Virus record (IMG/VR): IMGVR_UViG_3300025889_000075
Span: 32,001-96,000 of that record
Length of the DNA stretch: 64,000 nt
DNA from: a virus
Direction: 5' to 3' (one strand)
Part shown: positions 44,187 to 62,927 of the stretch, in pieces
Layout of the letters: each line of letters starts with the position of its first letter
How positions within the stretch are numbered: the first letter of the stretch is position 1
The notes under the pieces: model-generated
What the model was told of the DNA's origin: nothing
Databases searched by the model: none
Seen by the model: the letters and a program-made list of their open reading frames with translations, nothing else
Made by a program: the position numbers and the translations under genes

Positions 44187-44468
44187 ATGCCGTCTGCGGA
44201 TTCTTCTACTGGAACCTCAATATTACTAGATTCTTCTTGGGAAAATTATTTCACCTTTTCTAGAAGTATTTCTGGATTAAGTTTTTTAGATTCAGATCTC
44301 CACATTGTAGAAAAAAATATATTTGGTAATTCTTTAGATTCCGATGACGCTGCATTTTCTTTTGGCACTAAACAAATTTCTGGTTTGCTTGATGATTGGG
44401 ATAAGGGATCTGATCCTCCTGTTGCAATACAACCTGGTTATAGAAAACAATTTTGGTGGGATGGATAA
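44187..44468 (+). CDS. Small hypothetical protein with four DS motifs
   Basis: Fills the gap between coupled neighbours; ADSS, LDSS, LDSD, LDSD. Confidence 0.6.
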   Translation: MPSADSSTGTSILLDSSWENYFTFSRSISGLSFLDSDLHIVEKNIFGNSLDSDDAAFSFGTKQISGLLDDWDKGSDPPVAIQPGYRKQFWWDG

Positions 44469-45487: not shown

Positions 45488-45491
45488 TTTT

Positions 45492-45499
45492 TATAAATA
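45492..45499 (+). promoter_or_regulatory. T4-type late promoter TATAAATA
   Basis: Exact consensus, intergenic. Confidence 0.85.
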
Positions 45500-45535
45500 G
45501 ATGTACAAATCATTATTTCTTAATGGAGTAAAACA

Positions 45536-46477
45536 ATGAGTGATAGCAGTAACAAAGAAGTGGCAATTTATGAAAATATTGTTAGAGATCTTGTCAAGAT
45601 TGAAAACCGCGAAGAGTTTTATGTTCCGGTTGAGAAGGTTTTTGGTCAAGGTACTCTAGCAGAAACACCAAGTTTTGGTGGTAGAAGTTTAGCAGAAAAT
45701 TCTGTAATGGTAACTGAAGCATTTAAGAATACCAACGAACTTCAAAACATCTGGAACAGAAGTCATTCTCAGTGGGACTGGAAACATATTAATATGTCCT
45801 ACCACGGTGACTTTAAAAATGTTCGTCAGATTGCCGCTGAAATTAATCGTAAAAAACAGGCACTTGATGAAGCGAAATGGCGTCATGTCAAGAACGAAAT
45901 CAAGTTAAGGAAGATTGAAGAAAAACTCGAAAACCCTGATCTTGATTATTGGAGGCGAATTGAACTTCAAGTTGAAGTCGCTCAAATGAGAGAAGGTATT
46001 GCTTCTGGTACAACTTATATTGAAGGTGCTATGAAAGATGTTCTTGCTTTGAACAATCTTTATGAGCAAATGAAAGATAAGTTTGAAGGATTTACTGAAG
46101 CAGATTTCGAACGCGAAGAATCAAAATCGCATTTGAAAAGAAGCGTTGTTCAATGTATTCGAGATGTTCGTCAAAGTGGTTCTATCACTAAAGGTGAGCA
46201 AGAATATCTTGAACAAATTGGTGTTAATCCAACAAAAATGCTTTATCTAATTCGAGAATATATAAATAAAGAAGAAGCGAAGGACGATTGGAGCGTTACG
46301 GCGTTACATGATTTTGTTGCTAAGATTGTTGATGAATTGATTGACGTTCTTCAGGTCGATCGTAAGAGAATGGAGTTAATGGGTTTCAATCCAGATCCTG
46401 TTGACGCATTAACTTATGATAATAAAGTTGCTCTTAAATTAGAACACAAAGGAGATGACACCGATGGCAGTAGTTGA
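45536..46477 (+). CDS. Coiled-coil hypothetical protein heading the propeller operon
   Basis: SD GGAG; charged helical composition; no recognised family. Confidence 0.7.
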   Translation: MSDSSNKEVAIYENIVRDLVKIENREEFYVPVEKVFGQGTLAETPSFGGRSLAENSVMVTEAFKNTNELQNIWNRSHSQWDWKHINMSYHGDFKNVRQIAAEINRKKQALDEAKWRHVKNEIKLRKIEEKLENPDLDYWRRIELQVEVAQMREGIASGTTYIEGAMKDVLALNNLYEQMKDKFEGFTEADFEREESKSHLKRSVVQCIRDVRQSGSITKGEQEYLEQIGVNPTKMLYLIREYINKEEAKDDWSVTALHDFVAKIVDELIDVLQVDRKRMELMGFNPDPVDALTYDNKVALKLEHKGDDTDGSS

Positions 46478-46790
46478 GTATAAACTCCATGCAGTTGGAA
46501 CTAATGCGATGCAAGCACCGCATTGGATGAAAGATGGTGGTTACTGGCGCAATCCTGATGATCACACAATGGTTGGTTGGGTTCCAGATAACTCTGAATT
46601 TTGGGTACCGGATACAGTAGTCACATTGACTCGTGCTGAATTTATCACGCGTCAGTTGGGCATTCATGCTGCTCATCCGATGACTGAACCAGCAGACCCT
46701 GCAGATCCAGCGTCTGAACCAACGACATTAACCAACGAACAAGTTGAAACGCAAGCAGGTACTTGGTACGATAATTTCCACGCTGAGTAA
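46464..46790 (+). CDS. Hypothetical protein
   Basis: SD GGAG 9 nt before ATG 46464; MAVVEYKLH...DGGYW. Confidence 0.65.
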   Translation: MAVVEYKLHAVGTNAMQAPHWMKDGGYWRNPDDHTMVGWVPDNSEFWVPDTVVTLTRAEFITRQLGIHAAHPMTEPADPADPASEPTTLTNEQVETQAGTWYDNFHAE

Positions 46791-46800
46791 GGAATAACAC

Positions 46801-48171
46801 ATGGCGATTAGTGTTCCTGCTCTTCTGGATTCTGCACAGACCTACGCGAGCGCGGCAGATAGTTCTAATGAGGCAATCAACTTACTACAAATAGTTGATG
46901 CTTCTCACGCGTACACGTCTGGTTATACCCGAAGAAACTATTATGACAGTGCTGGTCAATTACCCACTGCTGATAGTTCTATGGAGGGTATGATCACGCT
47001 CGTTAAAGGCACACAAGCAGGTGGACTAGGTAATGGTCTGTATCTATGTACAGGAACTGCTTGGACAGAATTTTATGATTTAGATTCTGGCGATTATATC
47101 GACCCATTTTCTTTACAAGGTTCAACTTCTGGGTTTGTTGCAGGTGGGCATTATACTTTTGCTACAGCATTAAATTCTATTGGAACATATTCTTTCGGAA
47201 GTTCTGTTACTCTTTCAGATCATGGTGATTTGATTAGTGCATCCGCATATTCTGCACCGTCTAATGATGCTTCTTATGGATATGTTCATGGTGGGGTTAG
47301 AACAGCGCCAGTTCCTAATCCTTCTGTGGATAGATTTTCTTTTTCTAGTTCTACTGGTGGAACAAATGTTGGTAGTTTGTCGTTTTCGTATTATTATGCT
47401 GCAGGTTTTAGTTCACCTTCTTCTTATGGATATAACGTAGGTGGACAAGGGCAGACAATTATTCCATCTTTTCCTAGTACATACGGAAATTCAATTCAGA
47501 AATTTCCTCTAACGAGTTCAACTACCTCAACAGACATTGGAGATTTAGTTGTTAACGTACACAGGCAAATTGCTAATAATTCTACTGAATACGGTTACAA
47601 TTCTGGTGGTACAGCCTCACCATGGTCACCATCTCCAACAGCATTTAGTGCTCCAACTCTAGGACCAAGCGGACCTTCTTGGGGTCCAGGATCATATGGA
47701 ACAAATGATGCCAGCCCAGGCACAACTGATTTTTTTGTTGCTGTTAGAGATAAATTTCCATTTGCATCAGACACTAATTCATCTTGGATTGCTAATTTAA
47801 ATCCTTTCAGATCATCAGGCACTGGTGTTAACTCTTCAGACAAAGGGTTTTTCTTTACTGGATATCAAAGAACAAGTCCCTGGATTGGGATTAATGCCCT
47901 CCAACATTTTCCGTTTGCAAGCGATACTACTATTACTAGTAATGGTCTTCTTCAAACAGTAAATACATATCCTGCAGTGTATGTTGAAGGTTCTGGTTCT
48001 TCTTCAACAGATTATGGATATATCCATGGAAGTAGAGGAACTGCTTCTTATCCAGCAATTACTAGTGACATAATTAGATTTCCATGGTCTGCTACAGGCG
48101 GTGGAGAAACAGACGTTGGAGACATAACTTCTGGATATGGTAGGATTAATGCCACAGGACATCAGGTGTAA
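46801..48171 (+). CDS. Propeller-array paralogue 1 (anchor type A + divergent kelch-like propeller)
   Basis: About 100-aa DS-rich N-terminus; QGSTSG; degenerate KFPF.SDT..GDL...GY..GG repeats; ends GHQV. Confidence 0.75.
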   Translation: MAISVPALLDSAQTYASAADSSNEAINLLQIVDASHAYTSGYTRRNYYDSAGQLPTADSSMEGMITLVKGTQAGGLGNGLYLCTGTAWTEFYDLDSGDYIDPFSLQGSTSGFVAGGHYTFATALNSIGTYSFGSSVTLSDHGDLISASAYSAPSNDASYGYVHGGVRTAPVPNPSVDRFSFSSSTGGTNVGSLSFSYYYAAGFSSPSSYGYNVGGQGQTIIPSFPSTYGNSIQKFPLTSSTTSTDIGDLVVNVHRQIANNSTEYGYNSGGTASPWSPSPTAFSAPTLGPSGPSWGPGSYGTNDASPGTTDFFVAVRDKFPFASDTNSSWIANLNPFRSSGTGVNSSDKGFFFTGYQRTSPWIGINALQHFPFASDTTITSNGLLQTVNTYPAVYVEGSGSSSTDYGYIHGSRGTASYPAITSDIIRFPWSATGGGETDVGDITSGYGRINATGHQV

Positions 48172-48173
48172 TT

Positions 48174-49424
48174 ATGGCAATTAATATAACAAAACTAATT
48201 AATGCCGTATCCGGAATCGTAGGAAACCTGGACAGTGACAACACGCTCACTGAATTGAACCGTGGTACAATTGCTGCACAGGAAGTAAACGAGGCGAGAG
48301 ACGCTCTCTCGTTCGCTACGGTTGCTGATTTCGAAACAGCTGACTCAACCAATGAGGGTAATATTGTCTATGCTAGTTCAACGAAAAAATATTACGTTTC
48401 TATTCACAATCGTTGGGCGCCAATTAATTTAACAGGTCCATCAACGACTGCTCCTGCTGCTCCATCTAGTCTAATCGTTCAAGGTTCTAGTTATGGGTAT
48501 ACGACTGGTGGTGCCGCGTCACCGGTATTGAATAATACGCAGTCATTAACTCAAATTTTACAATTTTCCTTTACTTCTGATGGTAATGCAACGGACGTTG
48601 GAGACATTAACCCAGCAGTTCCGCTTGGAAGAGTTGCTTCTAGTTCACAGACTTCTTCGACTCATGGTTATCATTCTGGTGGGTTAGTAACCCCACCACA
48701 AATTACGTCAACAAATAATATACAAAAATGGTCATTTACCAGTCCATATAATGGATCAGATGTCGCAGATTTGTCTTCTGATACTTTTAGACCGTTTGGG
48801 TCTAGTTCACCAACTGATGGTTATTCAACTGGGGGAAGAGGAGGAACACCAATAGTTTATCTAACAGTTCATGATAAATTTCCAACCTCTTCCGATACAA
48901 ATGCTACGGACAATGGTGATTTGACAGCGGGTAGATATCAGACTGGGGGAGGAAATTCTTCTTCTTCTGCTTCATATTTCGCTGGTGGATCCACACCCAC
49001 AGGGGCTGTGAATATAATAGAAAAAATACCTTTTGCGGCGGGTGGAACAGCAACAGACGTTGGCGACCTCACAACACCGAACATCAACAGCACTGGTGCA
49101 AATACTTCTGATCATGGTTACACTCTCGGTGGTTCTAATAATGGATATGCAGAAGCAAATTTAAATGTGATACAGAGATTTTCATATTCTTCTGATGGTA
49201 ACGCTACAGACTATGCTGATCTTGCAAACGGAGTTTACACTGGGGCAGGTTGTTCATCAACATCTTATGGTTATACAACTGGCGGACAAAGTTCACCAGG
49301 TGCCCCGCAAGCAGGTGCTGCAATTAATGTAATACAGAAATTTCCTTTCTCTACTGCTACAAATGGCACTGACGTGGGAGATTTGACTAGCATCTTAGCT
49401 AATCATTCAGGAAATCAAAACTAA
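48174..49424 (+). CDS. Propeller-array paralogue 2 (anchor type D)
   Basis: MAINI start; F.SDGNATDVGD repeats; ends GNQN. Confidence 0.78.
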   Translation: MAINITKLINAVSGIVGNLDSDNTLTELNRGTIAAQEVNEARDALSFATVADFETADSTNEGNIVYASSTKKYYVSIHNRWAPINLTGPSTTAPAAPSSLIVQGSSYGYTTGGAASPVLNNTQSLTQILQFSFTSDGNATDVGDINPAVPLGRVASSSQTSSTHGYHSGGLVTPPQITSTNNIQKWSFTSPYNGSDVADLSSDTFRPFGSSSPTDGYSTGGRGGTPIVYLTVHDKFPTSSDTNATDNGDLTAGRYQTGGGNSSSSASYFAGGSTPTGAVNIIEKIPFAAGGTATDVGDLTTPNINSTGANTSDHGYTLGGSNNGYAEANLNVIQRFSYSSDGNATDYADLANGVYTGAGCSSTSYGYTTGGQSSPGAPQAGAAINVIQKFPFSTATNGTDVGDLTSILANHSGNQN

Positions 49425-50626
49425 TGACAATCAGCATAACAAACATAATAACAGCAATTGAGAACAAGATAGCAGCTCTTGACAGTTCTGTATCATCTCA
49501 AGATATGCGTCATTATTTTAGTGCTGCTGGTTTGACCAACACTACGATCACTCAGTATTATGATAGTGCAGGTCTTTTGCCAACAGCAGATTCTGATTAC
49601 AAAGGGCAGATTGTTTTAGTATCAAATCCTTCATCAGCAGCTTCAGGAAATGCATTGTATATTTGTACTGACTCTGGTGGAGGTGTTGCTTGGTCAGCGT
49701 GGCAGACACTTGATTCTGCTCCTACGTATTCGCCTGCACAGGGTTCATCATATGGGTATAATTCTGGTGGTGGATTCCCATCACCTGTAAATACTATTCA
49801 AAAATACTCATTTACATCAGATGGTAATGCTACTGACGTTGGTGATTTAACAGAGGTTAGATCTGCTTTAGCAGGGCAATCTTCAGATGTTAGTGGATAT
49901 GTTTCTGGTGGAACTCAAAGTAGTGGAAACAGGAATTACATCGAAAATTTTCCTTTCTCTACTGACGCTAATTCTACTGACGTTGGAGATTTGACAATAG
50001 GTAGATGGGGGTGTTCAGGTACTATGTCAGATGCTAATGGGTATACTTCTGGCGGTACTGGTACGCCGACGATTGTAAATGTCATCGACAAATTTCCATT
50101 GTCGTCTAATGCAAATGCTACTGATGTAGGCGATTTAACATCAGGAAGATATGGTGCGGCAGGTAATTCATCAACTACTAATGGATATGCTTCTGGTGGT
50201 TACCAACCACCTACTATAAATGCTATAGAGAAATTCCCATTCTCGTCTGATGCGAATTCTTCTGACGTAGGAGATTTGATAGCAGCAAGATACTATTCAG
50301 CAGGTCAATCATCAGATAATAGTGGTTATGTTTCTGGAGGATCAACTCTTGTAGCGCCGAGCGCTTTAAACGTCGTTGACAAATTCCCATTCTCTTCTGA
50401 CGCTAATTCTACCGAGGTGGGTAGTTTGACTCAAGCAAGGGGTCAAATGGCGGGAACATCATCAACTGTCAGTGGATATAATTCTGGCGGTTGGGTGCCA
50501 CCATCTTATCCGGTCAGTGGTTCTACAAACATTATAGACAAATTTCCATTTGCTTCTAATGGTAGTGCTACTGATGTTGGTGATCTTTTAACATTACAAC
50601 TGTTATCAGCAGGACAGCAGGTATAA
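49424..50626 (+). CDS. Propeller-array paralogue 3 (anchor type A)
   Basis: YYDSAG.LPTADS anchor; six KFPFSSDAN.TDVGDL-type repeats; ends GQQV. Confidence 0.8.
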   Translation: MTISITNIITAIENKIAALDSSVSSQDMRHYFSAAGLTNTTITQYYDSAGLLPTADSDYKGQIVLVSNPSSAASGNALYICTDSGGGVAWSAWQTLDSAPTYSPAQGSSYGYNSGGGFPSPVNTIQKYSFTSDGNATDVGDLTEVRSALAGQSSDVSGYVSGGTQSSGNRNYIENFPFSTDANSTDVGDLTIGRWGCSGTMSDANGYTSGGTGTPTIVNVIDKFPLSSNANATDVGDLTSGRYGAAGNSSTTNGYASGGYQPPTINAIEKFPFSSDANSSDVGDLIAARYYSAGQSSDNSGYVSGGSTLVAPSALNVVDKFPFSSDANSTEVGSLTQARGQMAGTSSTVSGYNSGGWVPPSYPVSGSTNIIDKFPFASNGSATDVGDLLTLQLLSAGQQV

Positions 50627-50629
50627 ACA

Positions 50630-51820
50630 ATGGCAATTAATATACAAACCTTGTTAGATGTAATTAATGCTAAGATCACCGCTGGTGTAGCAGCAGGATC
50701 CACTGACTCTGATCGATTAGTTACGTTGACTGCTTGGAGAGACAATCACCAGAATGCAGCATTCTTTAATACATTTGCTGATTTGCCCGCTGCTGATTCT
50801 TCGAATGCAGGAAATTTCTTTTCTACAGGTACAGGTTCTAGTAAAAAATACTATGTTTCTTGGAAAAATAAATTGAAAGAAGTTTTGTCAACAGATAGTG
50901 ATGCAGTAGGAAATCAAACATTACCTAACTCAGTAGGTCAAACTTATGGTTTTCATGCTGCAGGAATATCAGGAAACGATCCAGATACAACGCATACAAA
51001 TATAATTGAAAGATTTCCTTTTTCCTCTGACGCTAATGCTACTGATGTTGGTGATTTGTCTCCGACTCCTTTAGGTGGAAACCTTGGATCTTCTTCTTCG
51101 GTTGATCGAGGGTGGGCATTCGGCGGTAGCGGTGGCGTAAACTTTACGTTTGCTAATTCTAATTTGAGCAGCAATAATGCTTATTCAGCTAGCAATTTTG
51201 GTATACAAGGGGGTCAAAGCGAAACACATCTTTATGCTTTAGGTGGGCGTCCGACAAGTTTGCCTACTGCACCAAACGATACCTTTGCGCAAAAAAGACA
51301 ATTTTCTAATACAACTACTACTACTCTAACTTCTTTTTCTAATGCTAGACATCACGCAGCAACCGTTTCTGGTCCTGCTGCAGTTTATACTTCGGGTGGA
51401 TATAGATATTGGCATCCAAACGATAATCCTGCACTTATTACTCAGTCGCCCGGAACAGAAAAACATTCTTTTAGTAATGATGCTAGGTCTACTGTGCCTG
51501 GACTTCCCGCAAAATCTCCATATTATAATGTCCATCAAGGAATGCAAAATGAAGTAAATGGATATCTTGGAAGAGCAACACAATTAATAAAATTTCCATT
51601 TGCTTCGGAAACTCCAGTTTCAGTTAGTCAACCAATAATGCCAATCGGCGGGTATTTTTCTGCTAGTTCTTCTTCATCAGGTTATGGTTATAGATTCGCT
51701 GGTGGACCACCCGGTAGTTATCCAGGAATAGTTAAGTTTCCTTGGAACAGCGAATCAACAGTAACTAGCGTAGGAAATTTAACTTCTCCAAGAACTAGGG
51801 GTTCGGGGCATCAAAATTAG
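50630..51820 (+). CDS. Propeller-array paralogue 4 (anchor type D, divergent propeller)
   Basis: ADSSNAGN..KKYYVS anchor; one canonical and several degenerate repeats; ends GHQN. Confidence 0.75.
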   Translation: MAINIQTLLDVINAKITAGVAAGSTDSDRLVTLTAWRDNHQNAAFFNTFADLPAADSSNAGNFFSTGTGSSKKYYVSWKNKLKEVLSTDSDAVGNQTLPNSVGQTYGFHAAGISGNDPDTTHTNIIERFPFSSDANATDVGDLSPTPLGGNLGSSSSVDRGWAFGGSGGVNFTFANSNLSSNNAYSASNFGIQGGQSETHLYALGGRPTSLPTAPNDTFAQKRQFSNTTTTTLTSFSNARHHAATVSGPAAVYTSGGYRYWHPNDNPALITQSPGTEKHSFSNDARSTVPGLPAKSPYYNVHQGMQNEVNGYLGRATQLIKFPFASETPVSVSQPIMPIGGYFSASSSSSGYGYRFAGGPPGSYPGIVKFPWNSESTVTSVGNLTSPRTRGSGHQN

Positions 51821-51828
51821 GAACTATT

Positions 51829-53028
51829 ATGGCAGTCGATATTAAAAAACTATTAGAGATTGTACAGAAAAGAATTAATAATCTTGATTCTTCGACAGTC
51901 ACATTGCAAGAGTTAATTGATATTGCTAACTTTACTGATAAAGCATCAAAGGGCACATTGCAATTTGTTGATGATTCGAGCGATTTGCCAAACTTATTAA
52001 GTGGTAATACGCCTAGTGCAGAGTCTCAAAAACAATTGATTTTTGTTAAGAACTCAGGAAGAATGTTTGTCAAAAAAGATAAGTGGAAACCATTTACGTA
52101 CAGAGGTTTGATTCCTTCCTCTGGACCATCCTTTGTTTATGGTGGTACTACAACAGGGTTTCGTGCTGGGTTGGTTTCAATTCCAACTTGGACATATTCA
52201 GACGCTATTTCTTCTTTTCCGTTCGCTAGTGATACTCCTTTCGCTAGTTGGGGATCTTTAACAGTTGCTAATGGTTATAACCATGGTTGGAGTAGTACAA
52301 CTCATGGATATACTGCTGGTGGTTATGGTCCTGCTGTACCAGGAGACAATAGTAAAATCGATAAATTTTCTATGAGTTCGCCTGGTAATGCCAGTACCAC
52401 TGCAAACCTTCCTCTTGGTAGATCACAGGGTGTAGCGCACCATAATGACACTAATGGGTATTTATCTGGCGGCAGTGGTGGTGGTTCATATGCATTTAAA
52501 TTTATTTTTTCCAGCGATACTACTAATGCTACTACTGTTCCAGCATTGGCGACACCTTTAAGTCTTAACAATAGATCTCCGCAGGTGAGCACAACTTATG
52601 GGTATACTTCTGGAGGAACTACCTTTTCCAATTCAATAGAAAAGTTTCCCTTTGCTTCAGAGGATGCCTGGTCTGATGTAGGAGATTTAACTGTTGGTGG
52701 ACGCAAATCATCAGGAATGTCTTCTGATACACACGGATATAATGCTGGTGGACAAATATCTCCACATCCAACGATAGGTAACGATATTAATAAATTCCCT
52801 TTCGCTTCAGATACAAACGCTACTGATGTAGCAAGTTTAACTACTGCAGCTGCAGCGAATACTGGTGTAAGTTCAACCACTAACGGATATTCTTTAGGAG
52901 GATGGACTCTTAACCCTGGATATAATAATGTATCTACAAGCGATAAATTTCCGTTTTCGTCAGAAACAAGCATTTCTAATGTGTTCAGTAATACAGGTGG
53001 TGGTGAAGCGGCAGGACATCAGGTATAA
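51829..53028 (+). CDS. Propeller-array paralogue 5 (distinct anchor, type E)
   Basis: MAVDIKKLL; FPFASD/E repeats; ends GHQV. Confidence 0.78.
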   Translation: MAVDIKKLLEIVQKRINNLDSSTVTLQELIDIANFTDKASKGTLQFVDDSSDLPNLLSGNTPSAESQKQLIFVKNSGRMFVKKDKWKPFTYRGLIPSSGPSFVYGGTTTGFRAGLVSIPTWTYSDAISSFPFASDTPFASWGSLTVANGYNHGWSSTTHGYTAGGYGPAVPGDNSKIDKFSMSSPGNASTTANLPLGRSQGVAHHNDTNGYLSGGSGGGSYAFKFIFSSDTTNATTVPALATPLSLNNRSPQVSTTYGYTSGGTTFSNSIEKFPFASEDAWSDVGDLTVGGRKSSGMSSDTHGYNAGGQISPHPTIGNDINKFPFASDTNATDVASLTTAAAANTGVSSTTNGYSLGGWTLNPGYNNVSTSDKFPFSSETSISNVFSNTGGGEAAGHQV

Positions 53029-53053
53029 GAGTTAATTCTCACATAATTTTTTT

Positions 53054-53061
53054 TATAAATA
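53054..53061 (+). promoter_or_regulatory. T4-type late promoter TATAAATA splitting the array into two units
   Basis: Exact consensus in the only sizeable intergenic gap of the array. Confidence 0.82.
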
Positions 53062-53091
53062 GATTGTGATAATTTGTGTGAGGATATTTCC

Positions 53092-53406
53092 GTGGTATTA
53101 AATCTAACCGCATTAATTGCAAGTCTCGACTCCGCTGCTAACCTGGCAGACTCAAGCGACCCTGCATTAGATCTTTTACAAATTCTTGATGCAACAAGAA
53201 TGAACAACAACGCGACGACTAAATATTATGCAGCTCGCGCTGATCTGCCTATTGCAGATTCAGCGAATGAGGGCATGGTTGTTCTCGTTTCTGATTTAAC
53301 TGGAGCAAACGCAGAAAGAGGTTTGTTTGTTAGCACAGGAACATTTTGGAAAGAATTGCAAGGGTTTGAAGCAGGTAGTTCATTAACGCCAAGAACAAAC
53401 CCGTAA
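53092..53406 (+). CDS. Anchor-only paralogue 6 (type A, no propeller)
   Basis: GTG start with SD GAGGA; LDSA...ADSS....LLQI.DA...YY....LP.ADS..EGM..LV aligns to the N-terminus of 46801. Confidence 0.7.
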   Translation: MVLNLTALIASLDSAANLADSSDPALDLLQILDATRMNNNATTKYYAARADLPIADSANEGMVVLVSDLTGANAERGLFVSTGTFWKELQGFEAGSSLTPRTNP

Positions 53407-53418
53407 GGTAATTAATTC

Positions 53419-54711
53419 ATGGCGATTAATATTCAAAAACTGTTAGACGCTGTACAGGCAAAAATCAATGCCAGTACCGGATCATCTGGTATGGTTGAAT
53501 TGAATCATTTGTCTAATTTGTCGCAGTGGTTGAATAGTTACACCAATCAATCAAGCGTTAAAGAATATACTAATCTAGCAGCATTTCCAACTGCAGACTC
53601 AGCAAACCACGGAGATATAGCATTTAGTCTTGACAGTGGCGCTTATCGTATTTCTGAACAATTAGCGTGGAGAGAAATATCACTAAATGCTGATAGTGCG
53701 ATTTCTTCTGGACCTAGTTCTCCACCTTCGCCATTACAAGCAGCGAGTAATTATGGATACGTTGTTGGAGGTCAAACTCCTGTTACTGCTTCTATGGAAA
53801 GGTTTGCTTTTGCAAGTTCTGCCAACGGGACGTCTACTGGAAATTTATCGACCCCAAGATGGGGTGCGGCGGGTTATTCTTCTTCTACTGATGGATATGC
53901 TATTGGTGGTTCGACTCCTTTAGTGACACCGCATTTAAATGGTTATGATGATGTTTTAAAATACCCGTTTGCTTCTAGTACTCCATCCACCCAAATAGGA
54001 ACTTTGAATGCCCTTTCACCTGCTCCGACAGGAACTCCAGGAGGGGGAAGAATGGGTACTTCTAATATTTGTTCTCCAACTTCTGGATATGTTGTTGGAT
54101 TTGGTGGTAGATTAAGTCCCCCAAATCCGCTAGAACCACAATATCTATCAACTAATTGGAAATTCCCTTTTTCTTCTCCAACAGTAACTGATCTGTCGCT
54201 AGTAGGGGATTTAACAAGCGCCATATTTTACAGCAGTGGATCTTCATCAGGAGATTATGGGTACTTGGCGGGTGGTGAAACTGATGTTCCATCTCCAGCA
54301 TTAGTCTCCACTGTTGAAAAATGGTCTTTCTCTTCCGATGGTAATTCAACATCTGTTGGTTCTTTGTCTGGTCATTCTCGATCTGATGGGGGAAGTTCTG
54401 GTCCTACAAATGGTTATGCTCAGGGATCAAATCCAGCAGTAGGAACACCGACCGCAGTAGATAAAGTATGGAAATATAGTTTTACTTCTGACGGAAATGC
54501 AACAGAAATTGGAACTCTTTCAATAGATAGGTTTGGTGTGAATGGACATTCTGGTGGAACTCATGGATATGCGTCTGGCGGTGTTTTACCGAGCAACGGA
54601 GGTTATTCAAATGTTATTGATAGATTTCCTTTTTCTGCTGATACTAATTCTTCTGATGTAGGCGATCTAGCAGTTGCATCTCGTAATTATGCTGCTCCAG
54701 CGTCAAACTAG
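53419..54711 (+). CDS. Propeller-array paralogue 7 (anchor type B, divergent Pro-rich propeller)
   Basis: FPTADSANHGDIAFSLDSGAYRISEQLAWRE anchor; six degenerate repeats. Confidence 0.78.
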   Translation: MAINIQKLLDAVQAKINASTGSSGMVELNHLSNLSQWLNSYTNQSSVKEYTNLAAFPTADSANHGDIAFSLDSGAYRISEQLAWREISLNADSAISSGPSSPPSPLQAASNYGYVVGGQTPVTASMERFAFASSANGTSTGNLSTPRWGAAGYSSSTDGYAIGGSTPLVTPHLNGYDDVLKYPFASSTPSTQIGTLNALSPAPTGTPGGGRMGTSNICSPTSGYVVGFGGRLSPPNPLEPQYLSTNWKFPFSSPTVTDLSLVGDLTSAIFYSSGSSSGDYGYLAGGETDVPSPALVSTVEKWSFSSDGNSTSVGSLSGHSRSDGGSSGPTNGYAQGSNPAVGTPTAVDKVWKYSFTSDGNATEIGTLSIDRFGVNGHSGGTHGYASGGVLPSNGGYSNVIDRFPFSADTNSSDVGDLAVASRNYAAPASN

Positions 54712-54720
54712 GTATAACTT

Positions 54721-55866
54721 ATGGCAATCGATCTAAAAGAATTACTCATAGCAGCACAGAATAAGATCGGTAATTCGACCATCTCAACTGCAACCAGAGA
54801 TCTTGTATTTCTGGCAAAAACTGCTACACGTGGTGATACGTCAATCGTTGCTTTTGATTCTGATGGTGAGTTTCTTGATTCAGCATCACATGTTCATAGA
54901 ATTGCATATCATAGAGGGAGACAAAATCTATTCTTGTTAGATAGTGATAGAACATGGAAACCGATCAGTGGTACTGTTGCTGCTGAATATTCATTCCAAG
55001 GAAGCACTTCTGGATATGTTTCTGGTGGCTTCGCGCCAGGGTCAACAAATACCATCCAGAAATACCCATACACTTCTAATGGTAATGCGACTGATGTTGG
55101 TGATTTGACTGAAGCAAAAGTAGGTACATCAGGACAATCATCCTCTGATAATGGATATAATTCTGGCGGAACCCCAAATATAAACACCATAGAGAAATTC
55201 CCATTCTCATCTGACGCCAATTCTACTGATGTGGGTGATTTGACAGTAGTAAAACCATATACAGCAGGTCAATCATCAGCAAGTAATGGATATTCTTCTG
55301 GTGCTAATAGTCCTGCTGCAAACGGTGGTAATACCATTGACAAATTTCCGTTTGCTGCTGATGCGAACGCTACTGATGTCGGAGATATAACGGTAGCAAC
55401 TGGTCTGTCAGCAGGTCAATCATCCGAAACTCATGGTTATACTTCTGGAGGTGCGATGATTGACAAATTTCCATTTGCTTCTGATGGTAATGCTACTGAT
55501 GTGGGCGATCAATCAATATACAGAACCGAAGTGAGTGGTCAATCATCCGAAACTCATGGTTATATGTCTGGCGGTTGGAATTACAATGGAGGTTCTCCAC
55601 TTATGTATAATGTTATAGATAAATTCCCATTCTCATCTGATACTAACGCGACTGATGTCGGAGATATGACATCGGTGAGGAGAGCGGCGGGAGGTACATC
55701 GTCAACTACTAGCGGATATACTGCTGGTGGCGTAATTCCTACTGGATCCACGCCATTCTTAAACATCATAGACAAATTTCCATTCTCTTCTGATGGTAAT
55801 GCTACTGACGTAGGAGATTTGCTCGCCCCAAATTATTATATAGGTTCTGTAGGACAACAGGTATAA
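54721..55866 (+). CDS. Propeller-array paralogue 8 (anchor type C)
   Basis: FDSDGEFLDSA anchor; six canonical repeats; ends GQQV. Confidence 0.8.
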   Translation: MAIDLKELLIAAQNKIGNSTISTATRDLVFLAKTATRGDTSIVAFDSDGEFLDSASHVHRIAYHRGRQNLFLLDSDRTWKPISGTVAAEYSFQGSTSGYVSGGFAPGSTNTIQKYPYTSNGNATDVGDLTEAKVGTSGQSSSDNGYNSGGTPNINTIEKFPFSSDANSTDVGDLTVVKPYTAGQSSASNGYSSGANSPAANGGNTIDKFPFAADANATDVGDITVATGLSAGQSSETHGYTSGGAMIDKFPFASDGNATDVGDQSIYRTEVSGQSSETHGYMSGGWNYNGGSPLMYNVIDKFPFSSDTNATDVGDMTSVRRAAGGTSSTTSGYTAGGVIPTGSTPFLNIIDKFPFSSDGNATDVGDLLAPNYYIGSVGQQV

Positions 55867-55869
55867 CTT

Positions 55870-57069
55870 ATGGCAATTAATATAAGAAATTTAATGACAG
55901 TAGTGCAAACGAAGTTAAACGCGACAACTTCGACCACTCCTGCACTTGAATTTAATCGCCTGTCAAAATTAGCAGATACCTTGAATGATTTTACAACTGG
56001 TATTAAAACATATACAGTTGCTGCAAGACCTGTTGCAGATTCTGCCAATCATGGAGAAATTATTTTTAGTTCAGATAGTGGAGCATTTTTTATCTCGGAA
56101 CAACTATCATGGAGAGAATTAGCAGTTGGTGATAGTGCGATTGTTGCTACTCCTACTTATACCTTCCAAGGGAGCACTTCTGGATATACTTCTGGTGGTA
56201 GAACAGCAGCAAGTAACGTTGCACTAAACACTATTGACAAATTTTCTTTTGCTCCAGGTGCTCAGAATGCTACAGACGTAGGTGATTTGACATTAGGTAT
56301 GTATGGTGGCGCTGCAGGTCAATCATCATCTGTATCTGGTTATACTTCTGGTGGATATCCAGGAACTCGATCCAGCGTAATAGATAAATTTCCATTCGCT
56401 TCTGACGGTAACGCAACAGATGTTGGTGATTTAACATCATCAAGATGGTATCTTTCAGGTCAATCTTCTTCTTCTAATGGGTATTCTGCTGGTGGTCCTG
56501 GTTCAAACAATGTTATTGATAAATTCCCATTTTCTTCAGACGCTAACGCTACTGACGTAGGAGATTTGACAGTAGGAAGATACGGATCATCAGGTCAATC
56601 ATCTACGACTCATGGATATGCTTCTGGTGGATTTACTCCTCTCTCAAATGTCATTGATAAATTCCCGTTTTCATCCGACGCTAATGCTACTGACGTTGGC
56701 GATATAACAGTAGCAAGACGTTATACAGCAGGTCAATCATCAACAGATAATGGATATACTTCTGGTGGAGAGCAAAATCCTCTGGCCACGAATACTGCTT
56801 CCAATGTCATAGATAAATTCCCATTTTCATCTGATGCTAACGCTACTGACGTTGGTAATTTAACAATAGCGCGAGCTCATGTTACCGGACAATCCTCGAC
56901 TGTTAATGGATATACTACTGGTGGATGGTTATGGCAGCCATTCCCGACTCCACCAGTTGTCTATAATACAATTGATAGGTTCCCATTCTCTACTACTGCT
57001 AACGCTACTGACATTGGAGATTTAACAATAGCAAGATATAGTGGAAATACAGAGGGACAACAGGTATAA
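55870..57069 (+). CDS. Propeller-array paralogue 9 (anchor type B)
   Basis: ADSANHGE...SEQLSWRE anchor; six canonical repeats; ends GQQV. Confidence 0.8.
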   Translation: MAINIRNLMTVVQTKLNATTSTTPALEFNRLSKLADTLNDFTTGIKTYTVAARPVADSANHGEIIFSSDSGAFFISEQLSWRELAVGDSAIVATPTYTFQGSTSGYTSGGRTAASNVALNTIDKFSFAPGAQNATDVGDLTLGMYGGAAGQSSSVSGYTSGGYPGTRSSVIDKFPFASDGNATDVGDLTSSRWYLSGQSSSSNGYSAGGPGSNNVIDKFPFSSDANATDVGDLTVGRYGSSGQSSTTHGYASGGFTPLSNVIDKFPFSSDANATDVGDITVARRYTAGQSSTDNGYTSGGEQNPLATNTASNVIDKFPFSSDANATDVGNLTIARAHVTGQSSTVNGYTTGGWLWQPFPTPPVVYNTIDRFPFSTTANATDIGDLTIARYSGNTEGQQV

Positions 57070-57072
57070 CTT

Positions 57073-58223
57073 ATGGCAATTAATATACAAAAATTACTAG
57101 AAGCGATACAAACAAGTATAGGTAATGCCACACCTGCTACACCCACACGCGAACTCGAAATTCTTACCAAAGGTGCATTTAAGTGGGGCGACAATCAAAT
57201 CACTTCATTTGATTCTGATGGAGAATTTCTTGACTCAGCAACTACTTCGCCATATATGTTAGCATACCATACAGGCCATATATGTTAGCATACCATACAG
57301 GTAAGAAAAACATTTATGCATTTGACAGCGGATCATGGCAATCGATCAGTGGTACTGTTGCTGCTGGATATTCATTCCAAGGTTCTACCAGTGGATATAC
57401 TTCTGGTGGATTGGTACCACCATTCTCTAACGTCATTGACAAATTCCCATTCTCATCTGACGGTAATGCTACTGATGTAGGAGATTTGACAGTAGCAAGA
57501 TCTAATGCAGCAGGTCAATCATCGTCTGCTAGTGGATATACTTCTGGTGGACATCCCTTCCCACTAGACGTAATTGACAAATTCCCATTCTCAGCTGATG
57601 CTAACGCTACTGATGTTGGTGATTTAACAGTAGCAAGACGGTATCTTGCAGGTCAATCTTCTTCTGCTAATGGGTATTCTGCTGGTGGTCCTGGTTCAAA
57701 CGTAATTGACAAATTCCCGTTTTCTTCTGATGCTAATGCTACTGATGTAGGCGATTTGACAGTAGCAAGATATTATTTAGCAGGTCAATCATCTACTGTT
57801 AGCGGATATTCTTCTGGTGGCACTCCACCATACACAAACGTCATTGATAAATTCCCATTTTCTGCTGATGCTAATGCTACTGATGTAGGTGATCTGACAG
57901 TAGCAAGAGGATATGTAACAGGTCAATCATCAACTGTTAGTGGGTATACTTCTGGGGGATTTAGTCCAGCTCAACAATCAAACGTAATTGACAAGTTTTC
58001 ATTCTCAACTGACACTAACGCTACTGACGTTGGGGATTTGACAGTAGCAAGATACAATTTAGCAGGAGGTCAATCATCTACTGCTAGCGGGTATACTTCT
58101 GGAGGTACGACATCCGACGCTACCAACATCATAGATAAATTCCCATTCTCATCTGATGGTAATGCTACGGATGTAGGTGATTTATCAGTAACTAGATATG
58201 GTGGAGCAGGTCAACAGGTATAA
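57073..58223 (+). pseudogene. Propeller-array paralogue 10 (anchor type C) frameshifted by a 26-bp tandem duplication
   Basis: ORFs 57073-57288 and 57282-58223 join into one 374-aa paralogue if one copy of the repeat is removed. May be an assembly artefact. Confidence 0.75.
57249..57300 (+). repeat. Perfect 2 x 26-bp tandem repeat GCCATATATGTTAGCATACCATACAG
   Basis: Copies at 57249-57274 and 57275-57300. Confidence 0.95.
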
Positions 58224-58226
58224 GTT

Positions 58227-59384
58227 ATGGCAATTAATATACAGAATTTATTAAATGTTGTTCAGGCGAAGTTAAACGCAACAACGCCAACGACACCTGC
58301 ACTTGAATTTTCTAGATTGTCATCGATATCTGATATGTTAGAAGATCATGGAGCGGCTGTTAAATCTTATCCTGGATTAGCATCATTTCCAACAGCAGAC
58401 TCAGCGAATCATGGTGACATTGCTTACAGTTTAGATAGCGCAACGTATAGAATATCAGAGCAACTTGCTTGGAGAGAAATATCATTAAATGCTGATAGTG
58501 TGATTGCTGCTGCTCCTACTAGCACACAAGCACAAGGTTCTACCAGTGGATATAATTCTGGTGGATTTTTAAATTCCGGCAACTCAAACGTCATCGAAAA
58601 ATTTCCATTCTCTACTGACGCTAATGCTACTGATGTTGGTGATTTGACACTAGGAAGATATAATGCATCAGGTCAATCTTCAACTGCTAGTGGGTATACT
58701 TCTGGTGGATCCAGTCCTGGACTATCACCCTATATTGTCAATAACATTGATAAATTTCCATTCTCTGCTGATGGTAATGCTACCGATGTAGGGGATTTGT
58801 CAGTAACAAGAACTGGAACAGCAGGACAATCTTCAGACGCTAGTGGATATATTTCTGGAGGTAGTTTGCCTGCTGCTTCTAATGTCATTGATAAATTCTC
58901 ATTCTCTTCTGATGGTAATGCAACTGACGTAGGCGATTTAACAGAAGCAAGAATAAAACCATCAGGACAATCATCAACTGTTAGTGGATATAATTCTGGT
59001 GGAACAGGGACTGGCAATATCATAGATAAATTCCCGTTCGCCTCTAATGCTAATGCTACCGATGTTGGTGATATAACGGTAGCGAGAAACTATGCTGTAG
59101 GTCAAAATTCAGACGCTAGTGGTTATACCTCTGGAGGATCCCCAACGTCGAATGTTATCGATAAATTCCCGTTTTCATCCGACGCGAATGCTACTGACGT
59201 AGGAGATTTGACAGTAGCAAGATATACATCAGCAGGTCAATCGTCAACTGCTAGTGGATATACTTCTGGAGGGTATCCATATCAAAACACTATTGATAAA
59301 TTCTCATTCTCTTCTGATGGTAATGCGACTGACGTTGGAGATATGACAGAAGTAAAGGGTTTCGTTATAGGACAACAGGTATAA
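58227..59384 (+). CDS. Propeller-array paralogue 11 (anchor type B)
   Basis: FPTADSANHGDIAYSLDSATYRISEQLAWRE anchor; six canonical repeats; ends GQQV. Confidence 0.8.
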   Translation: MAINIQNLLNVVQAKLNATTPTTPALEFSRLSSISDMLEDHGAAVKSYPGLASFPTADSANHGDIAYSLDSATYRISEQLAWREISLNADSVIAAAPTSTQAQGSTSGYNSGGFLNSGNSNVIEKFPFSTDANATDVGDLTLGRYNASGQSSTASGYTSGGSSPGLSPYIVNNIDKFPFSADGNATDVGDLSVTRTGTAGQSSDASGYISGGSLPAASNVIDKFSFSSDGNATDVGDLTEARIKPSGQSSTVSGYNSGGTGTGNIIDKFPFASNANATDVGDITVARNYAVGQNSDASGYTSGGSPTSNVIDKFPFSSDANATDVGDLTVARYTSAGQSSTASGYTSGGYPYQNTIDKFSFSSDGNATDVGDMTEVKGFVIGQQV

Positions 59385-59387
59385 ATT

Positions 59388-60638
59388 ATGGCAATTGATC
59401 TAAAAGAATTATTAAGTGCAGTACAGAGCAAGATTGGTAATCTTACGCCGTCAAGTCCATCGCGTCAAATTGAATTCTTGGCGAAAGCAGCAGTTAGGTC
59501 AGGAGAGAATTTAGTTCGCTCTTACGATTCTGATGGTGAGTTTTTAGATTCTGCGACAACTTCGCCTTATTTAATGCTCTATCATACAACAGATAAAAAT
59601 ATCTACATGTGGGATAGCGATGGTACTTGGAAACCGATTAGCGGCAATGAAGCGTTATTGGTTGGTTTACAAGGGGATTTAGCGGGGTATGCTATAACAG
59701 GAAGAAAAGCCACAAACTCCGACATAGATAATATTGTTGCATTTAGGTTTGCTTCAGGATCAGAAACTATCTATAATCAGGGTCTTAGTGGGGTAAACTC
59801 TTTGCCGGCAGGTGTTGGTATGGGTCATGGTCGTGGTACAATGAGTGAGACTAATGGATATCATTACGGTGGTTATAATCCTCCTTCTCCAATGTCAAGC
59901 ACAATGTATAAATTTCCATTTTCTTCTACTGGTGGACTTTCTGGTTTAAGTAGTATGAGTCCGCATGGAGCATATGCTTGGACTGCAGCTGTTTCAGCAC
60001 AAGGTCCAGGATACGGTTATTATTCAGCTGGGCGAGCATTACCCGCAGGTGCATCAAGCGCAACACATAAATTTCAATTTTCTAATGATACTTCTGCGGC
60101 GACTCCTGTTGGGACTACTAATTTTAGCTCTTATGCTACTGGTCAAACAGATGTCGTAGGCGGGCAGGGTCATATATTTCAATATGATATCATTGGAGGA
60201 TCATCAAGAGATAAATACCCATTTGCCTCTGATGTTAATGCTACTGCTATAACAAGTATTTCGATCTCAAAATATGGTTCTCAAGGATCTACTGGAGACG
60301 CTAGTAATTATTATCAAGCAGGTGGAGTAAACCCAAGCGGAAGTACCATTTACACTGATATTTACAAAATGAATTTCACAAGTGAAGGACCTTCAACAAA
60401 CATCGGCGATTTAACTACTGCAAGATATCAGACTGGAGGTTATTCTTATTCTGGCGGAACTGCTTTTATTGCGGGGGGGAGTTCCGGAACTCCTTCTCCA
60501 AACTATTTAAACCCATTAGCATATACATCAACTATTGAAGGTATTTCTTTTGCTAGTGATACCATCGGTGTTGCTGCTGGTTCTGGAATGTCTGGACCAT
60601 CGCCAGCTCGATCTGGATATGGTTGCGTTCAGGTTTGA
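59388..60638 (+). CDS. Propeller-array paralogue 12 (anchor type C, divergent propeller)
   Basis: YDSDGEFLDSATTSPY anchor; degenerate repeats; ends CVQV. Confidence 0.78.
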   Translation: MAIDLKELLSAVQSKIGNLTPSSPSRQIEFLAKAAVRSGENLVRSYDSDGEFLDSATTSPYLMLYHTTDKNIYMWDSDGTWKPISGNEALLVGLQGDLAGYAITGRKATNSDIDNIVAFRFASGSETIYNQGLSGVNSLPAGVGMGHGRGTMSETNGYHYGGYNPPSPMSSTMYKFPFSSTGGLSGLSSMSPHGAYAWTAAVSAQGPGYGYYSAGRALPAGASSATHKFQFSNDTSAATPVGTTNFSSYATGQTDVVGGQGHIFQYDIIGGSSRDKYPFASDVNATAITSISISKYGSQGSTGDASNYYQAGGVNPSGSTIYTDIYKMNFTSEGPSTNIGDLTTARYQTGGYSYSGGTAFIAGGSSGTPSPNYLNPLAYTSTIEGISFASDTIGVAAGSGMSGPSPARSGYGCVQV

Positions 60639-60663
60639 TTCTCTTTAAAATTTAATATATACT
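60635..60663 (+). promoter_or_regulatory. Sigma70-like promoter TTGATT-N17-TATACT
   Basis: -35 at 60635-60640 and -10 at 60658-60663, 25 nt before the sulfotransferase ATG. The AT-rich context lowers certainty. Confidence 0.5.
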
Positions 60664-60688
60664 ATTGTTATTTAATTATTAATTTATT

Positions 60689-61528
60689 ATGAAACAATTA
60701 CATTTTTGCGGTGGACTTCCACGTTCAGGATCAACAGTCTTAATGAATATACTTCAGCAAAACCCTGAAGTATTCACGACCACAACTGATCCTCTTCCGA
60801 TGAATCTTCAACGATATATTCTTCAGAGATTTCGTGTAACTGAAATGTTCCAAGCAATGGACGGTGATCATGCAGATCGTGCGTTGTATGGTATGGCAAT
60901 GGGAGCAATTAATGGTTGGTACAGCGGATTAACAAATAAACCTGTTGTTATCTCTAAGACTCGTTATTGGAATCGTATACATCATTTACTGCCGAATGCA
61001 AAAATATTAATTATGATTCGAGACTTGAGGGACATCGTCGAAAGTTTCAACAAAGTTAATTTAAGATTAAAAGCATTACATTCATACGAAACAGAAGGTA
61101 GCGCGTTATATGCTGCTATGACTGAGATGCAAAAATTTGATTATCATTTCGGCAAAGATAATTCTTTAAGTGCATCATTACAAGAAGAAGTACCAGCAGC
61201 AATGGAATTTTGGATGTATGAGAATAAACAAGACACAATTAAGTTTATTCGTTACGAAGACTTTCTTAAAGATCCTATAGATACAATTAGATCAATCTAT
61301 GCTTTTCTTAATTTAAATTATTACGAACACGACTTAAATAATATTTCACAATCAGAAATGTTTGAACATGATAATGCCTATTTTATGGAGAAAACTGATC
61401 ATCGGACCAAACCCTCCTTTATTAAATGGCAACCACCAAAAAGGTTATTAAGCGAACGTATACATAATCGTATACTTAAAGAATATCAATGGTTTTATGA
61501 AGGATTTTATCCGGAGGAATTAAAATAA
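60689..61528 (+). CDS. PAPS-dependent sulfotransferase
   Basis: 5'-PSB loop GGLPRSGSTVL..IL.QNP; 3'-PB KILIMIRDLRDIVES; IRYEDF..DP..TI..IY.FL. Confidence 0.88.
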   Translation: MKQLHFCGGLPRSGSTVLMNILQQNPEVFTTTTDPLPMNLQRYILQRFRVTEMFQAMDGDHADRALYGMAMGAINGWYSGLTNKPVVISKTRYWNRIHHLLPNAKILIMIRDLRDIVESFNKVNLRLKALHSYETEGSALYAAMTEMQKFDYHFGKDNSLSASLQEEVPAAMEFWMYENKQDTIKFIRYEDFLKDPIDTIRSIYAFLNLNYYEHDLNNISQSEMFEHDNAYFMEKTDHRTKPSFIKWQPPKRLLSERIHNRILKEYQWFYEGFYPEELK

Positions 61529-62883: not shown

Positions 62884-62891
62884 CGAATCCT

Positions 62892-62899
62892 TATAAATA
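62892..62899 (+). promoter_or_regulatory. T4-type late promoter TATAAATA
   Basis: Exact consensus upstream of gp13. Confidence 0.85.
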
Positions 62900-62927
62900 A
62901 ACAGGAGTCAATTAGGATTATGCTAAA

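Follow-up and report, generated by a model that had tools for sequence, protein, structure and literature searches.

A tandem array of predicted Kelch-type propeller genes, likely encoding binding heads, in the host-recognition region of an uncultured marine T4-like myophage

The stretch of DNA analysed here (hereafter, the window) is 64,000 nucleotides (nt) long and covers bases 32001-96000 of the 155,131-bp virus record IMGVR_UViG_3300025889_000075 of IMG/VR, a record estimated to be 89% complete. Between positions 46801 and 60638 of the window lies a tandem array of eleven genes for propeller proteins and one gene for an N-terminal anchor alone, all on the same strand. The array is the subject of this report, and its products are likely to be binding heads carried on the virion of a T4-like myophage. 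An earlier account made from the letters of the window (hereafter, the sequence-only reading) had described twelve propeller paralogues in tandem at this place. The listing of open reading frames (ORFs) bears out the tandem, same-strand arrangement and corrects the count to eleven, as the twelfth ORF (53092-53406) encodes an anchor without repeats. The same account gave each gene an anchor of about 100 amino acids (aa) starting with MAI(N/D)(I/L), followed by about six repeats of about 45 aa; this architecture, with six units of about 45-50 aa, was found again in the propeller genes, and ORF 53092-53406 is where it does not hold. DNA copies per repeat family number 26 to 41, far above chance, and a hidden Markov model (HMM) of the blade matches every propeller gene.

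All genes of the array are on the + strand, and the gaps between them are -1 to 12 nt, except at two places. The array opens with gene 1 (46801-48171, 456 aa), which has a type III anchor, diverged blades and an orthologue at 4585-5736 of the syntenic contig L003. Then come gene 2 (48174-49424, 416 aa), gene 3 (49424-50626, 400 aa), which has regular blades and a start overlapping the stop of gene 2, gene 4 (50630-51820, 396 aa), whose blades are strongly diverged, and gene 5 (51829-53028, 399 aa). The anchor-only gene at 53092-53406 encodes about 104 aa without a propeller from a GTG start, with a GAGG ribosome-binding site 7 nt upstream. Next to it, gene 6 (53419-54711, 430 aa, type I anchor) and gene 7 (54721-55866, 381 aa, type II anchor) are the first and second genes of cassette copy 1. 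They are followed by gene 8 (55870-57069, 399 aa, type I anchor), of which a structural model was made, gene 9 (57073-58223, type II anchor), gene 10 (58227-59384, 385 aa, type I anchor) and gene 11 (59388-60638, 416 aa, type II anchor). Gene 11 has the most diverged propeller of the array; only 19 relatives of it were found, and the nearest one outside its own genome is 41% identical.

Gene 9 is split into the ORFs 57073-57285 and 57282-58223. The latter has no anchor because an exact 26-nt tandem duplication (57250-57275 and 57276-57301, + strand) frameshifts a gene that truly starts at 57073. The second 26-nt copy provides an in-frame ATG at 57282, from which a propeller without the greater part of its anchor might still be made. 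The duplication itself may reflect a mutation of recent date, variation in the population or a fault of assembly. A further full copy, encoding 410 aa and sister to gene 5, lies outside the window (G000:C1:107629-108861, or L071:11629-12861). It stands directly behind the major head protein gene, with a GC-rich terminator hairpin ahead of it and also a TATAAATA of its own, a motif treated below. This place raises the possibility that some members of the family attach to the head.

The fold of the repeat region was predicted with AlphaFold2. Gene 8, modelled from a 53-sequence alignment, gave a mean predicted local distance difference test (pLDDT) score of 88.5. In this model, helices at residues 5-18 and 25-40, a beta sub-domain at about 46-83 and a low-confidence linker at 87-94 precede six blades of four strands, 24 strands by DSSP, at residues 104-398. 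The top PDB matches of the model in Foldseek are the Kelch domains of KLHL12, KLHL17, KLHL2/3 and Keap1 and the designed SAKe6 propellers, and these are matched with E of about 1e-18, a target-normalised template-modelling score (TM) of 0.85-0.90 and a root-mean-square deviation of 2.4-3.0 Å. For gene 11, the model is of moderate confidence (pLDDT 69.8) and matches Kelch domains with TM 0.84-0.88. Thus, the six-bladed Kelch-like propeller proposed in the sequence-only reading is predicted for both paralogues modelled, one regular and the other the most diverged.

At the level of sequence, the likeness to Kelch proteins is faint. Six paralogues of the window gave no match to Pfam Kelch models at E <= 0.1, and one of ten homologues gave a weak Kelch_4 match (E 0.0057) short of the cut-off. 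When the family profile was compared with all PDB sequences, Kelch chains alone were returned, at non-significant E of 0.24-0.95. The register of the profile with KLHL17 is consistent though weak, in that GG falls on GG, IDKF on Kelch strand C and Arg on Arg. Each regular gene has six GYxSGG and six IDKFPF units; the Tyr of GYxSGG is invariant but sits in strand B, and the position aligned with the Kelch Trp carries D-V-G-D-L. Since structures match and sequence models do not, the heads are predicted to be Kelch-type in fold and to stand outside the Pfam Kelch families. Matches to Pfam DUF4907, THDPS_M and DNase_NucA_NucB were rejected as spurious, as they are sums of weak repeat matches without a single significant stretch. 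The features common to the window heads and to Keap1, KLHL2/3/12/17 and SAKe6 are six four-stranded blades, a repeat of about 45-50 aa, the GG after strand B, the Arg before the D-A loop and, for the window heads as predicted from topology, a ligand face made from B-C and D-A loops. Unlike BTB-Kelch adaptors, the window proteins have no BTB or BACK domain, occur in a phage structural context and carry an invariant C-D loop motif; in strand D, DVGDL replaces the Kelch Trp.

How the blades vary was analysed in an alignment of 30 blades from the five regular paralogues (those starting at 49424, 54721, 55870, 57282 and 58227). Hardly any change is seen in strands A (GQSS), B (GYTSGG), C (IDKFPF) and D (DVGDL) or in the C-D loop (SSDANAT). 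Variability is high at two places, namely where strand D ends and passes into the D-A turn, and in the B-C loop behind GG: all 25 B-C loops are distinct and 2-15 residues long, and all 30 D-A segments are distinct. Codon-level counts over these blades, given as uncorrected proportions of nonsynonymous (pN) and synonymous (pS) differences, are pS 0.55 and pN 0.13 in the core and pS 0.54 and pN 0.58 in the loops. The composition of the loops is also unusual, with 15% Pro in B-C loops against 5% overall and 10% Tyr in D-A segments against 4.6%. The C-D loop reads S-D-A-N-A-T-D-V-G-D in every blade (e.g., 56521-56570), and the D-x-N-x-T within it presumably has the form of a bacterial N-glycosylation sequon.

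The sequence-only reading had placed the variation at two sites per blade. The entropy and pN/pS values confirm this for the five regular paralogues, whereas the other six, chiefly genes 1, 4 and 11 (46801, 50630 and 59388), are diverged over the whole blade. The B-C and D-A connections of a four-stranded antiparallel blade come out on one face, which is the ligand face of Keap1-type Kelch domains. From this blade topology, the variable segments are the B-C and D-A loops and would lie together on the ligand face, in agreement with the earlier proposal.

DNA identity between blades is just 60-84% despite nearly identical peptides. Together with the excess of pS over pN in the core, this indicates that the likeness of the blades is kept by purifying selection on old copies. 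It does not come from recent duplication or wholesale homogenisation. Recent gene conversion was considered as a general cause of the similarity and is ruled out by synonymous sites that are near saturation. One tract, 56400-56530 against 57593-57723, is 92% identical on a background of 72-80% and may record limited exchange between genes 8 and 9.

The anchors are of at least three types, which alternate along the array. Their best-conserved part is the first 17 residues, MAINIxxLLxxIQxKI, and otherwise they are only about 20-30% identical. The conservation of these 17 residues suggests one docking partner common to all anchors. The beta sub-domain of the anchor has the motif Y-x-S-x(3)-LPTADS-x(2)-G-x-I-x(n)-Y-x(6)-W. 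No significant family match was found for the anchor in Pfam. The best PDB match of a profile of 39 anchors in hmmsearch is the collagen XV NC1 trimerisation domain (3n3f), at a non-significant E of 0.21; hhalign of the anchor against the multiplexin (collagen XV/XVIII) type of trimerisation domain gave a probability of 64% over 33 columns, below significance; Pfam Collagen_trimer matched one of the 39 anchors weakly (E 0.081); and the phage-tail trimerisation family PTL_trimer gave the anchor a sub-threshold score of 0.79 in the Atlas feature search. The profile also matches an unresolved shaft segment of the fibre gp28 of cyanopodophage P-SCSP1u, at a non-significant E of 1.1. From these profile comparisons, trimerisation by the anchor is taken as a lead.

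The anchor-only ORF at 53092-53406 is 82% identical in DNA to L003:9651-9995, with the frame kept, and anchor-only ORFs are present in contigs L001, L002 and L004 as well. On these grounds it appears to be a maintained gene, not debris. In L003, the orthologue of gene 3 (6934-7212) is reduced to a 93-aa anchor. As this orthologue is an anchor alone, loss of the head with the anchor kept would have occurred more than once. A head-less anchor is a candidate for a blank that fills docking sites, or for an assembly factor.

A quick maximum-likelihood tree of the paralogues from IQ-TREE gives a picture of how the array grew. Genes 1, 2, 4, 5 and 11 each pair with one gene of L003; genes 6, 8 and 10 have one L003 orthologue in common, and genes 7 and 9 another; separate lineage expansions are seen in contigs L004, L032 and L044. 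At the DNA level, 54950-56769 aligns with 57331-59138 over 1,888 nt at 70% identity, and this match indicates that a two-gene unit, made of a type I and a type II anchor gene, was duplicated to three copies. As judged from the tree and the alignments, the array appears to have grown by birth-and-death evolution of a gene family.

Mechanisms of active variation would leave other traces. The 155-kb record has no match to the reverse transcriptase family RVT_1, and no pair of template and variable repeats was found, as no high-scoring segment pair (HSP) of at least 60 nt above 88% identity connects the array copies; the most similar local stretch among them is about 92% identical over about 130 nt and lies inside a longer HSP. 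On this basis, a diversity-generating retroelement (DGR) is rejected. A scan of 45000-63000 revealed no inverted repeats of at least 20 nt, and an invertase or shufflon is rejected as well. The three copies of the cassette and the lack of RVT_1, repeat pair and inverted repeats agree with the earlier statement that diversification went by gene duplication and used neither a DGR nor an invertase. Active hypervariation of the repeats by such elements would be hardly credible as an explanation of the array, all genes of which lie on one strand, although some homologues have the Mtd_N domain known from the DGR target of BPP-1 and the record is 89% complete.

Candidate expression signals surround and enter the array. 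The motif TATAAATA, the consensus of T4 late promoters, occurs 11 times without mismatch in the window, within 2776-62899 and always on the + strand, the strand of the genes; shuffled sequence has 6.4 on both strands together. Nine of the 11 lie between genes, upstream of a gene start, and the remaining two (42522 and 46261) fall within the 3' portion of a gene, 183-194 nt before the following ORF begins. Those at 45492, 46261, 53054 and 62892 flank the array or sit within it: the T4-type late promoter motif at 45492-45499 (+ strand) is upstream of the gene p313, that at 53054-53061 (+ strand) is inside the array before the anchor-only gene and is kept in L003, and that at 62892-62899 (+ strand) precedes the gp13-like gene. 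Together, the 11 sites would chart candidate late promoters over the entire structural region. Scans for sigma-70 promoters and terminators gave no more sites than in shuffled sequence, a result compatible with long late transcripts.

Translation signals are found at the junctions of the genes. The conserved C-terminal codons GGA CAA CAG GTA TAA place an AGG about 9-11 nt ahead of the next ATG (e.g., 55851-55872, 58208-58229 and 59369-59390), so that the stretch encoding the last strand, which closes one propeller, also serves to start translation of the gene behind it. The same codons also spell TATAA(N), and only one junction site, TATAAATT at 59379-59386, is within one base of the late promoter consensus.

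By matches to PHROG, the window carries on its + strand the structural region of a T4-like myovirus. Tail tube cap, wedge, hub, gp6-like and gp8-like baseplate genes stand before the array, as do a VrlC-like gene of 1,948 aa and, after it, giant fibre genes. Behind the array come a sulfotransferase gene, a gene for a two-domain 2-oxoglutarate (2OG)-Fe(II) oxygenase and the gp13-like neck gene (62928-63683, + strand; phrog_211, E 2e-39), which marks the end of the variable region; genes for gp14, gp15, terminase, sheath, portal, scaffold and the major head protein follow downstream of the window. In pelagimyophages and cyanomyophages, a 'host recognition cluster' has been described between VrlC and the gp14/neck genes as a large non-syntenic island with fibres, carbohydrate-binding domains, Mtd domains and non-structural genes (Zaragoza-Solas et al., 2020; PMC7029224). 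The array occupies the position of this cluster. The text of that paper has no occurrence of propellers, of such arrays or of oxygenase or sulfotransferase partners. Judged by the gp6 protein, the cultured phage nearest to this one is Phage C48C1 (40% identity); Methylophilales phage Melnitz and Pelagibacter phage HTVC008M come next. With these relatives, and with no psbA in the 155-kb record, an origin from a cyanophage is unsupported, and the host of the phage is probably a marine heterotroph.

The family of these proteins is very large and unnamed, and it hardly occurs in cultured phages or in cellular genomes. More than 4,400 relatives came from a word-seeded search, and the exhaustive search with HMMER yielded 8,050 representative clusters at 50% identity, of which 1,494 lie below 1e-30. 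All names recovered, those of NCBI-sourced members included, are 'hypothetical protein', and the family's sole PHROG match, phrog_19111, is of unknown function. Of the 70 related viral contigs retrieved from IMG/VR, most have 2-9 tandem copies. The array had no nucleotide match among 50,697 phage records, and a protein search against the same cultured-phage records gave Synechococcus phage S-SKS1 alone, weakly. Among 185,579 species genomes, ten matches were found, all on short contigs of metagenome-assembled genomes, which are probably mis-binned phage DNA.

Domains attached to the propeller in other phages bear on where the proteins act. In place of the anchor, some homologues carry Mtd_N (E 9e-15 and 3e-14) or the N-terminal domain of the T7 tail fibre (E 7e-6, just above the cut-off), and others carry added TIG or LamG domains. 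These are attachment or shaft modules of known virion fibres and point to a head borne on the virion. Phage-encoded propellers of Kelch type are also known from jumbo phages, namely CBB_550/552/554 and proteins of BcepSaruman and of the phiKZ-like PhiPA3, Noxifer and Phabio. The Kelch-like protein CBB_552 of Pectobacterium phage CBB was detected in virions by mass spectrometry (PMC5259590), and among the structural matches of the window propeller in BFVD, some entries from PhiPA3, Noxifer and Phabio bear the annotation 'virion structural protein'. The jumbo phage proteins match Kelch in InterPro and Pfam and come from single or few genes, whereas the window family is a separate sequence family (phrog_19111) with its own anchors and arrays of up to 11 genes. 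Like Mtd of BPP-1 and gp17 of T7, the window proteins combine an anchor with a variable head, and their genes adjoin tail-fibre genes. However, the head folds differ, Mtd being a C-type lectin and the T7 tip likewise unlike the window propellers, and variation is spread over many paralogous genes in place of the DGR or allelic exchange of Mtd/T7-type proteins. A propeller also occurs in Gp45 of the staphylococcal phage phi11, a receptor-binding protein with a five-bladed propeller platform.

Four single-copy genes accompany the array. Upstream are p313 (45536-46477, + strand), a helical companion found near propeller genes in 33 of 71 loci, and the small neighbour p111 (46455-46790, + strand), found in 28 of the 71 and often within 150 nt of a propeller gene; these and the following neighbour counts are inflated by shared descent of T4-like synteny. 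Directly behind gene 11 lies the sulfotransferase gene (60689-61528, + strand; Pfam PF13469, E 2e-20), followed by that of the two-domain oxygenase (61528-62883, + strand; PF13640, E 4e-15; phrog_2954 and phrog_61). The sulfotransferase gene adjoins propeller genes in 20 of the 71 loci, usually directly behind the last one, and the oxygenase gene is within 3 kb of them in 36. In the window's own genome, each of the four is present once. Neither p313 nor p111 has a family or structural match or a homologue in cultured phages (for p313, by tblastn against the 50,697 records), and no Atlas entry matched p313; both are candidates for the docking partner or a chaperone. Further upstream, a glycine-rich protein of 344 aa (44453-45487) matches phrog_4474 and a tail-fibre-assembly PHROG; its stretch has a GC skew of 0.27, and its relatives are close to propeller genes in 10 of the 71 loci. 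The order of the neighbouring genes is different in lineages with other anchors (contigs L007 and L008).

Among solved structures, the sulfotransferase comes closest to protein-tyrosine sulfotransferases (PDB 8w5z, E 1.5e-6; human TPST1/2, about 1e-3), and the C-terminal oxygenase domain comes closest to prolyl 4-hydroxylases (PDB 3itq and 5hv0, E 1.3e-5). A comparable set is found in S-SKS1, which is classified in a genus of its own, Llyrvirus: at NC_020851 199817-207961, an oxygenase domain of 'ferrochelatase' type, a 2OG oxygenase, a sulfotransferase and at least four ORFs of the propeller family, among them an unannotated one of 455 aa (201816-203180), stand together. The other family members of this phage, whose host is Synechococcus WH7803, lie at 203162-203665, 204951-206351 and 207248-207961. 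Related oxygenases are common in cyanophages without propellers, and distant sulfotransferases also occur without them; thus, the association of the enzymes with the array is not exclusive. From gene order, a link between the enzymes and propeller arrays is suggestive.

Taken as a whole, the array is best explained as a repertoire of late proteins, likely virion-borne binding heads, which an uncultured marine T4-like myophage encodes in its host-recognition region, and we give this explanation a probability of about 0.6. It is preferred because of the late promoter motifs, the host-recognition position, the Mtd_N and T7-fibre N-termini of homologues and the Kelch-type propellers of jumbo phages, CBB_552 and the BFVD entries included. 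Gene structure, predicted fold, selection pattern, promoter motifs, history of duplication and domain make-up of homologues come out of the analysis itself; a virion location, a common docking site, an oligomeric state and ligands on the host surface we infer. Each gene would encode a protein of about 40 kDa, with an anchor (an N-terminal helix, a second helix and a small beta sub-domain), a disordered linker rich in Ser, Ala and Pro, and a propeller apparently closed by the C-terminal GQQV strand. The anchor would probably serve for docking and possibly for trimerisation. The framework of the blades would be held constant by selection, and the B-C and D-A loops, unique to each blade, would give each protein its own ligand specificity. 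Transcription apparently starts from T4-type late promoters, and the genes seem to be packed for translational coupling. Repeated gene duplication and loss, with no DGR or DNA inversion, would have produced the diversity.

Several points weigh against virion-borne binding heads. Both the presence of family members in virions and their binding of ligands are inferred. The anchor type of the window matches none of the known virion-attachment domains significantly, and it resembles a trimerisation domain at sub-threshold level (E 0.21; hhalign 64%). The extra copy behind the capsid gene leaves head, neck and tail as candidate attachment sites. The pN/pS values that set the loops apart from the core were taken without correction from near-saturated synonymous sites, and the claim that the loops share one face rests on blade topology. 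The regular family members in the alignment of gene 11 may have biased its predicted fold, and the confidence of that model is moderate. Finally, conservation at the surface is greatest in the C-D loop (SDANATD), which lies on the opposite face and could, in place of the variable loops, be the functional site.

The last point is the basis of the main rival, in which the heads are lectins that bind through this conserved opposite face. The invariant C-D loops, with the motif F-P-F-S-S-D-A-N-A-T-D-V-G-D in each blade, would bind a common glycan, or Ca2+ and a glycan, six-fold in the manner of multivalent propeller lectins, the variable loops would be unconstrained and mainly the anchors would make the difference between paralogues. 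No part of any blade, or of the family as a whole, is more conserved than the C-D loop with its flanks, which is unusual for a surface loop; anchors of at least three types indeed alternate along the array; and the spacing D-x-N-x-T-D-x-G-D in the C-D loop is reminiscent of EF-hand or integrin-type Ca2+ loops, a resemblance that can serve as a lead only. However, loops of 2-15 residues that are each unique and have pN close to pS fit diversification of a binding face at least as well, and the conserved C-D motif is largely lost in six of the 11 paralogues, whose genes are intact. In addition, the propeller lectins AAL, RSL and tachylectin-2 are absent from the top fold matches, which are all Kelch domains. 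Binding by the conserved face is judged unlikely. Late proteins that stay outside the virion, such as substrate adaptors, factors for host-surface masking or superinfection exclusion, or assembly chaperones, are a quite improbable source of the array. Cellular and poxviral Kelch domains, found among the fold matches, are intracellular protein-binding adaptors, the neighbours of the array include enzymes, and the published host recognition cluster includes non-structural genes (PMC7029224). Against a role outside the virion speak the homologues with Mtd_N and T7 tail-fibre N-termini, the location between fibre genes and gp13 downstream of late promoter motifs, the lack of BTB or any other adaptor domain and the near-confinement of the family to phage contigs. 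Some Kelch-type propellers are enzymes, and weaker BFVD matches include phage proteins annotated 'galactose oxidase', so that enzymes of galactose-oxidase-like or NanM-like type modifying sugars of the host surface were considered too. Yet the blades are nearly identical and have no blade-specific catalytic residues, no enzyme family was matched, and eleven paralogues differing in loops only would suit binding and not catalysis; a catalytic role is very improbable.

If the array does encode virion-borne heads, its enzyme neighbours allow a further, tentative step. The Pro-rich B-C loops and Tyr-rich D-A loops, next to genes for hydroxylase-like and sulfotransferase-like enzymes, lead to the hypothesis that the loops are modified. 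In this hypothesis, the propeller heads would be substrates of the enzymes and would carry hydroxyproline and sulfotyrosine on their loops, and paralogues docked by one helix would form mosaic, multi-specific virions. We regard this combination as rather doubtful. If it were true, the phage would encode a modification pathway of the sort applied to extracellular proteins and use it for tuning receptor binding.

What was found belongs with two known kinds, the receptor-binding heads and the Kelch-like proteins of phages, in a family that is very large and uncharacterised. T4-like phages of marine waters rank among the ocean's most abundant viruses, and their host-recognition proteins are mostly unannotated. 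The family described here has no name and no Pfam model, is known from sequence alone and typically occurs as multi-gene arrays. The cultured phage S-SKS1 carries an equivalent module, and the ideas are directly testable there. The link with hydroxylase-like and sulfotransferase-like enzymes could mean that phage adhesins are modified after translation. If the family members are virion binding heads, they would represent a major unrecognised route to host range in uncultured phages, by expansion of a gene family, and a natural library of stable six-bladed scaffolds with programmable loops.

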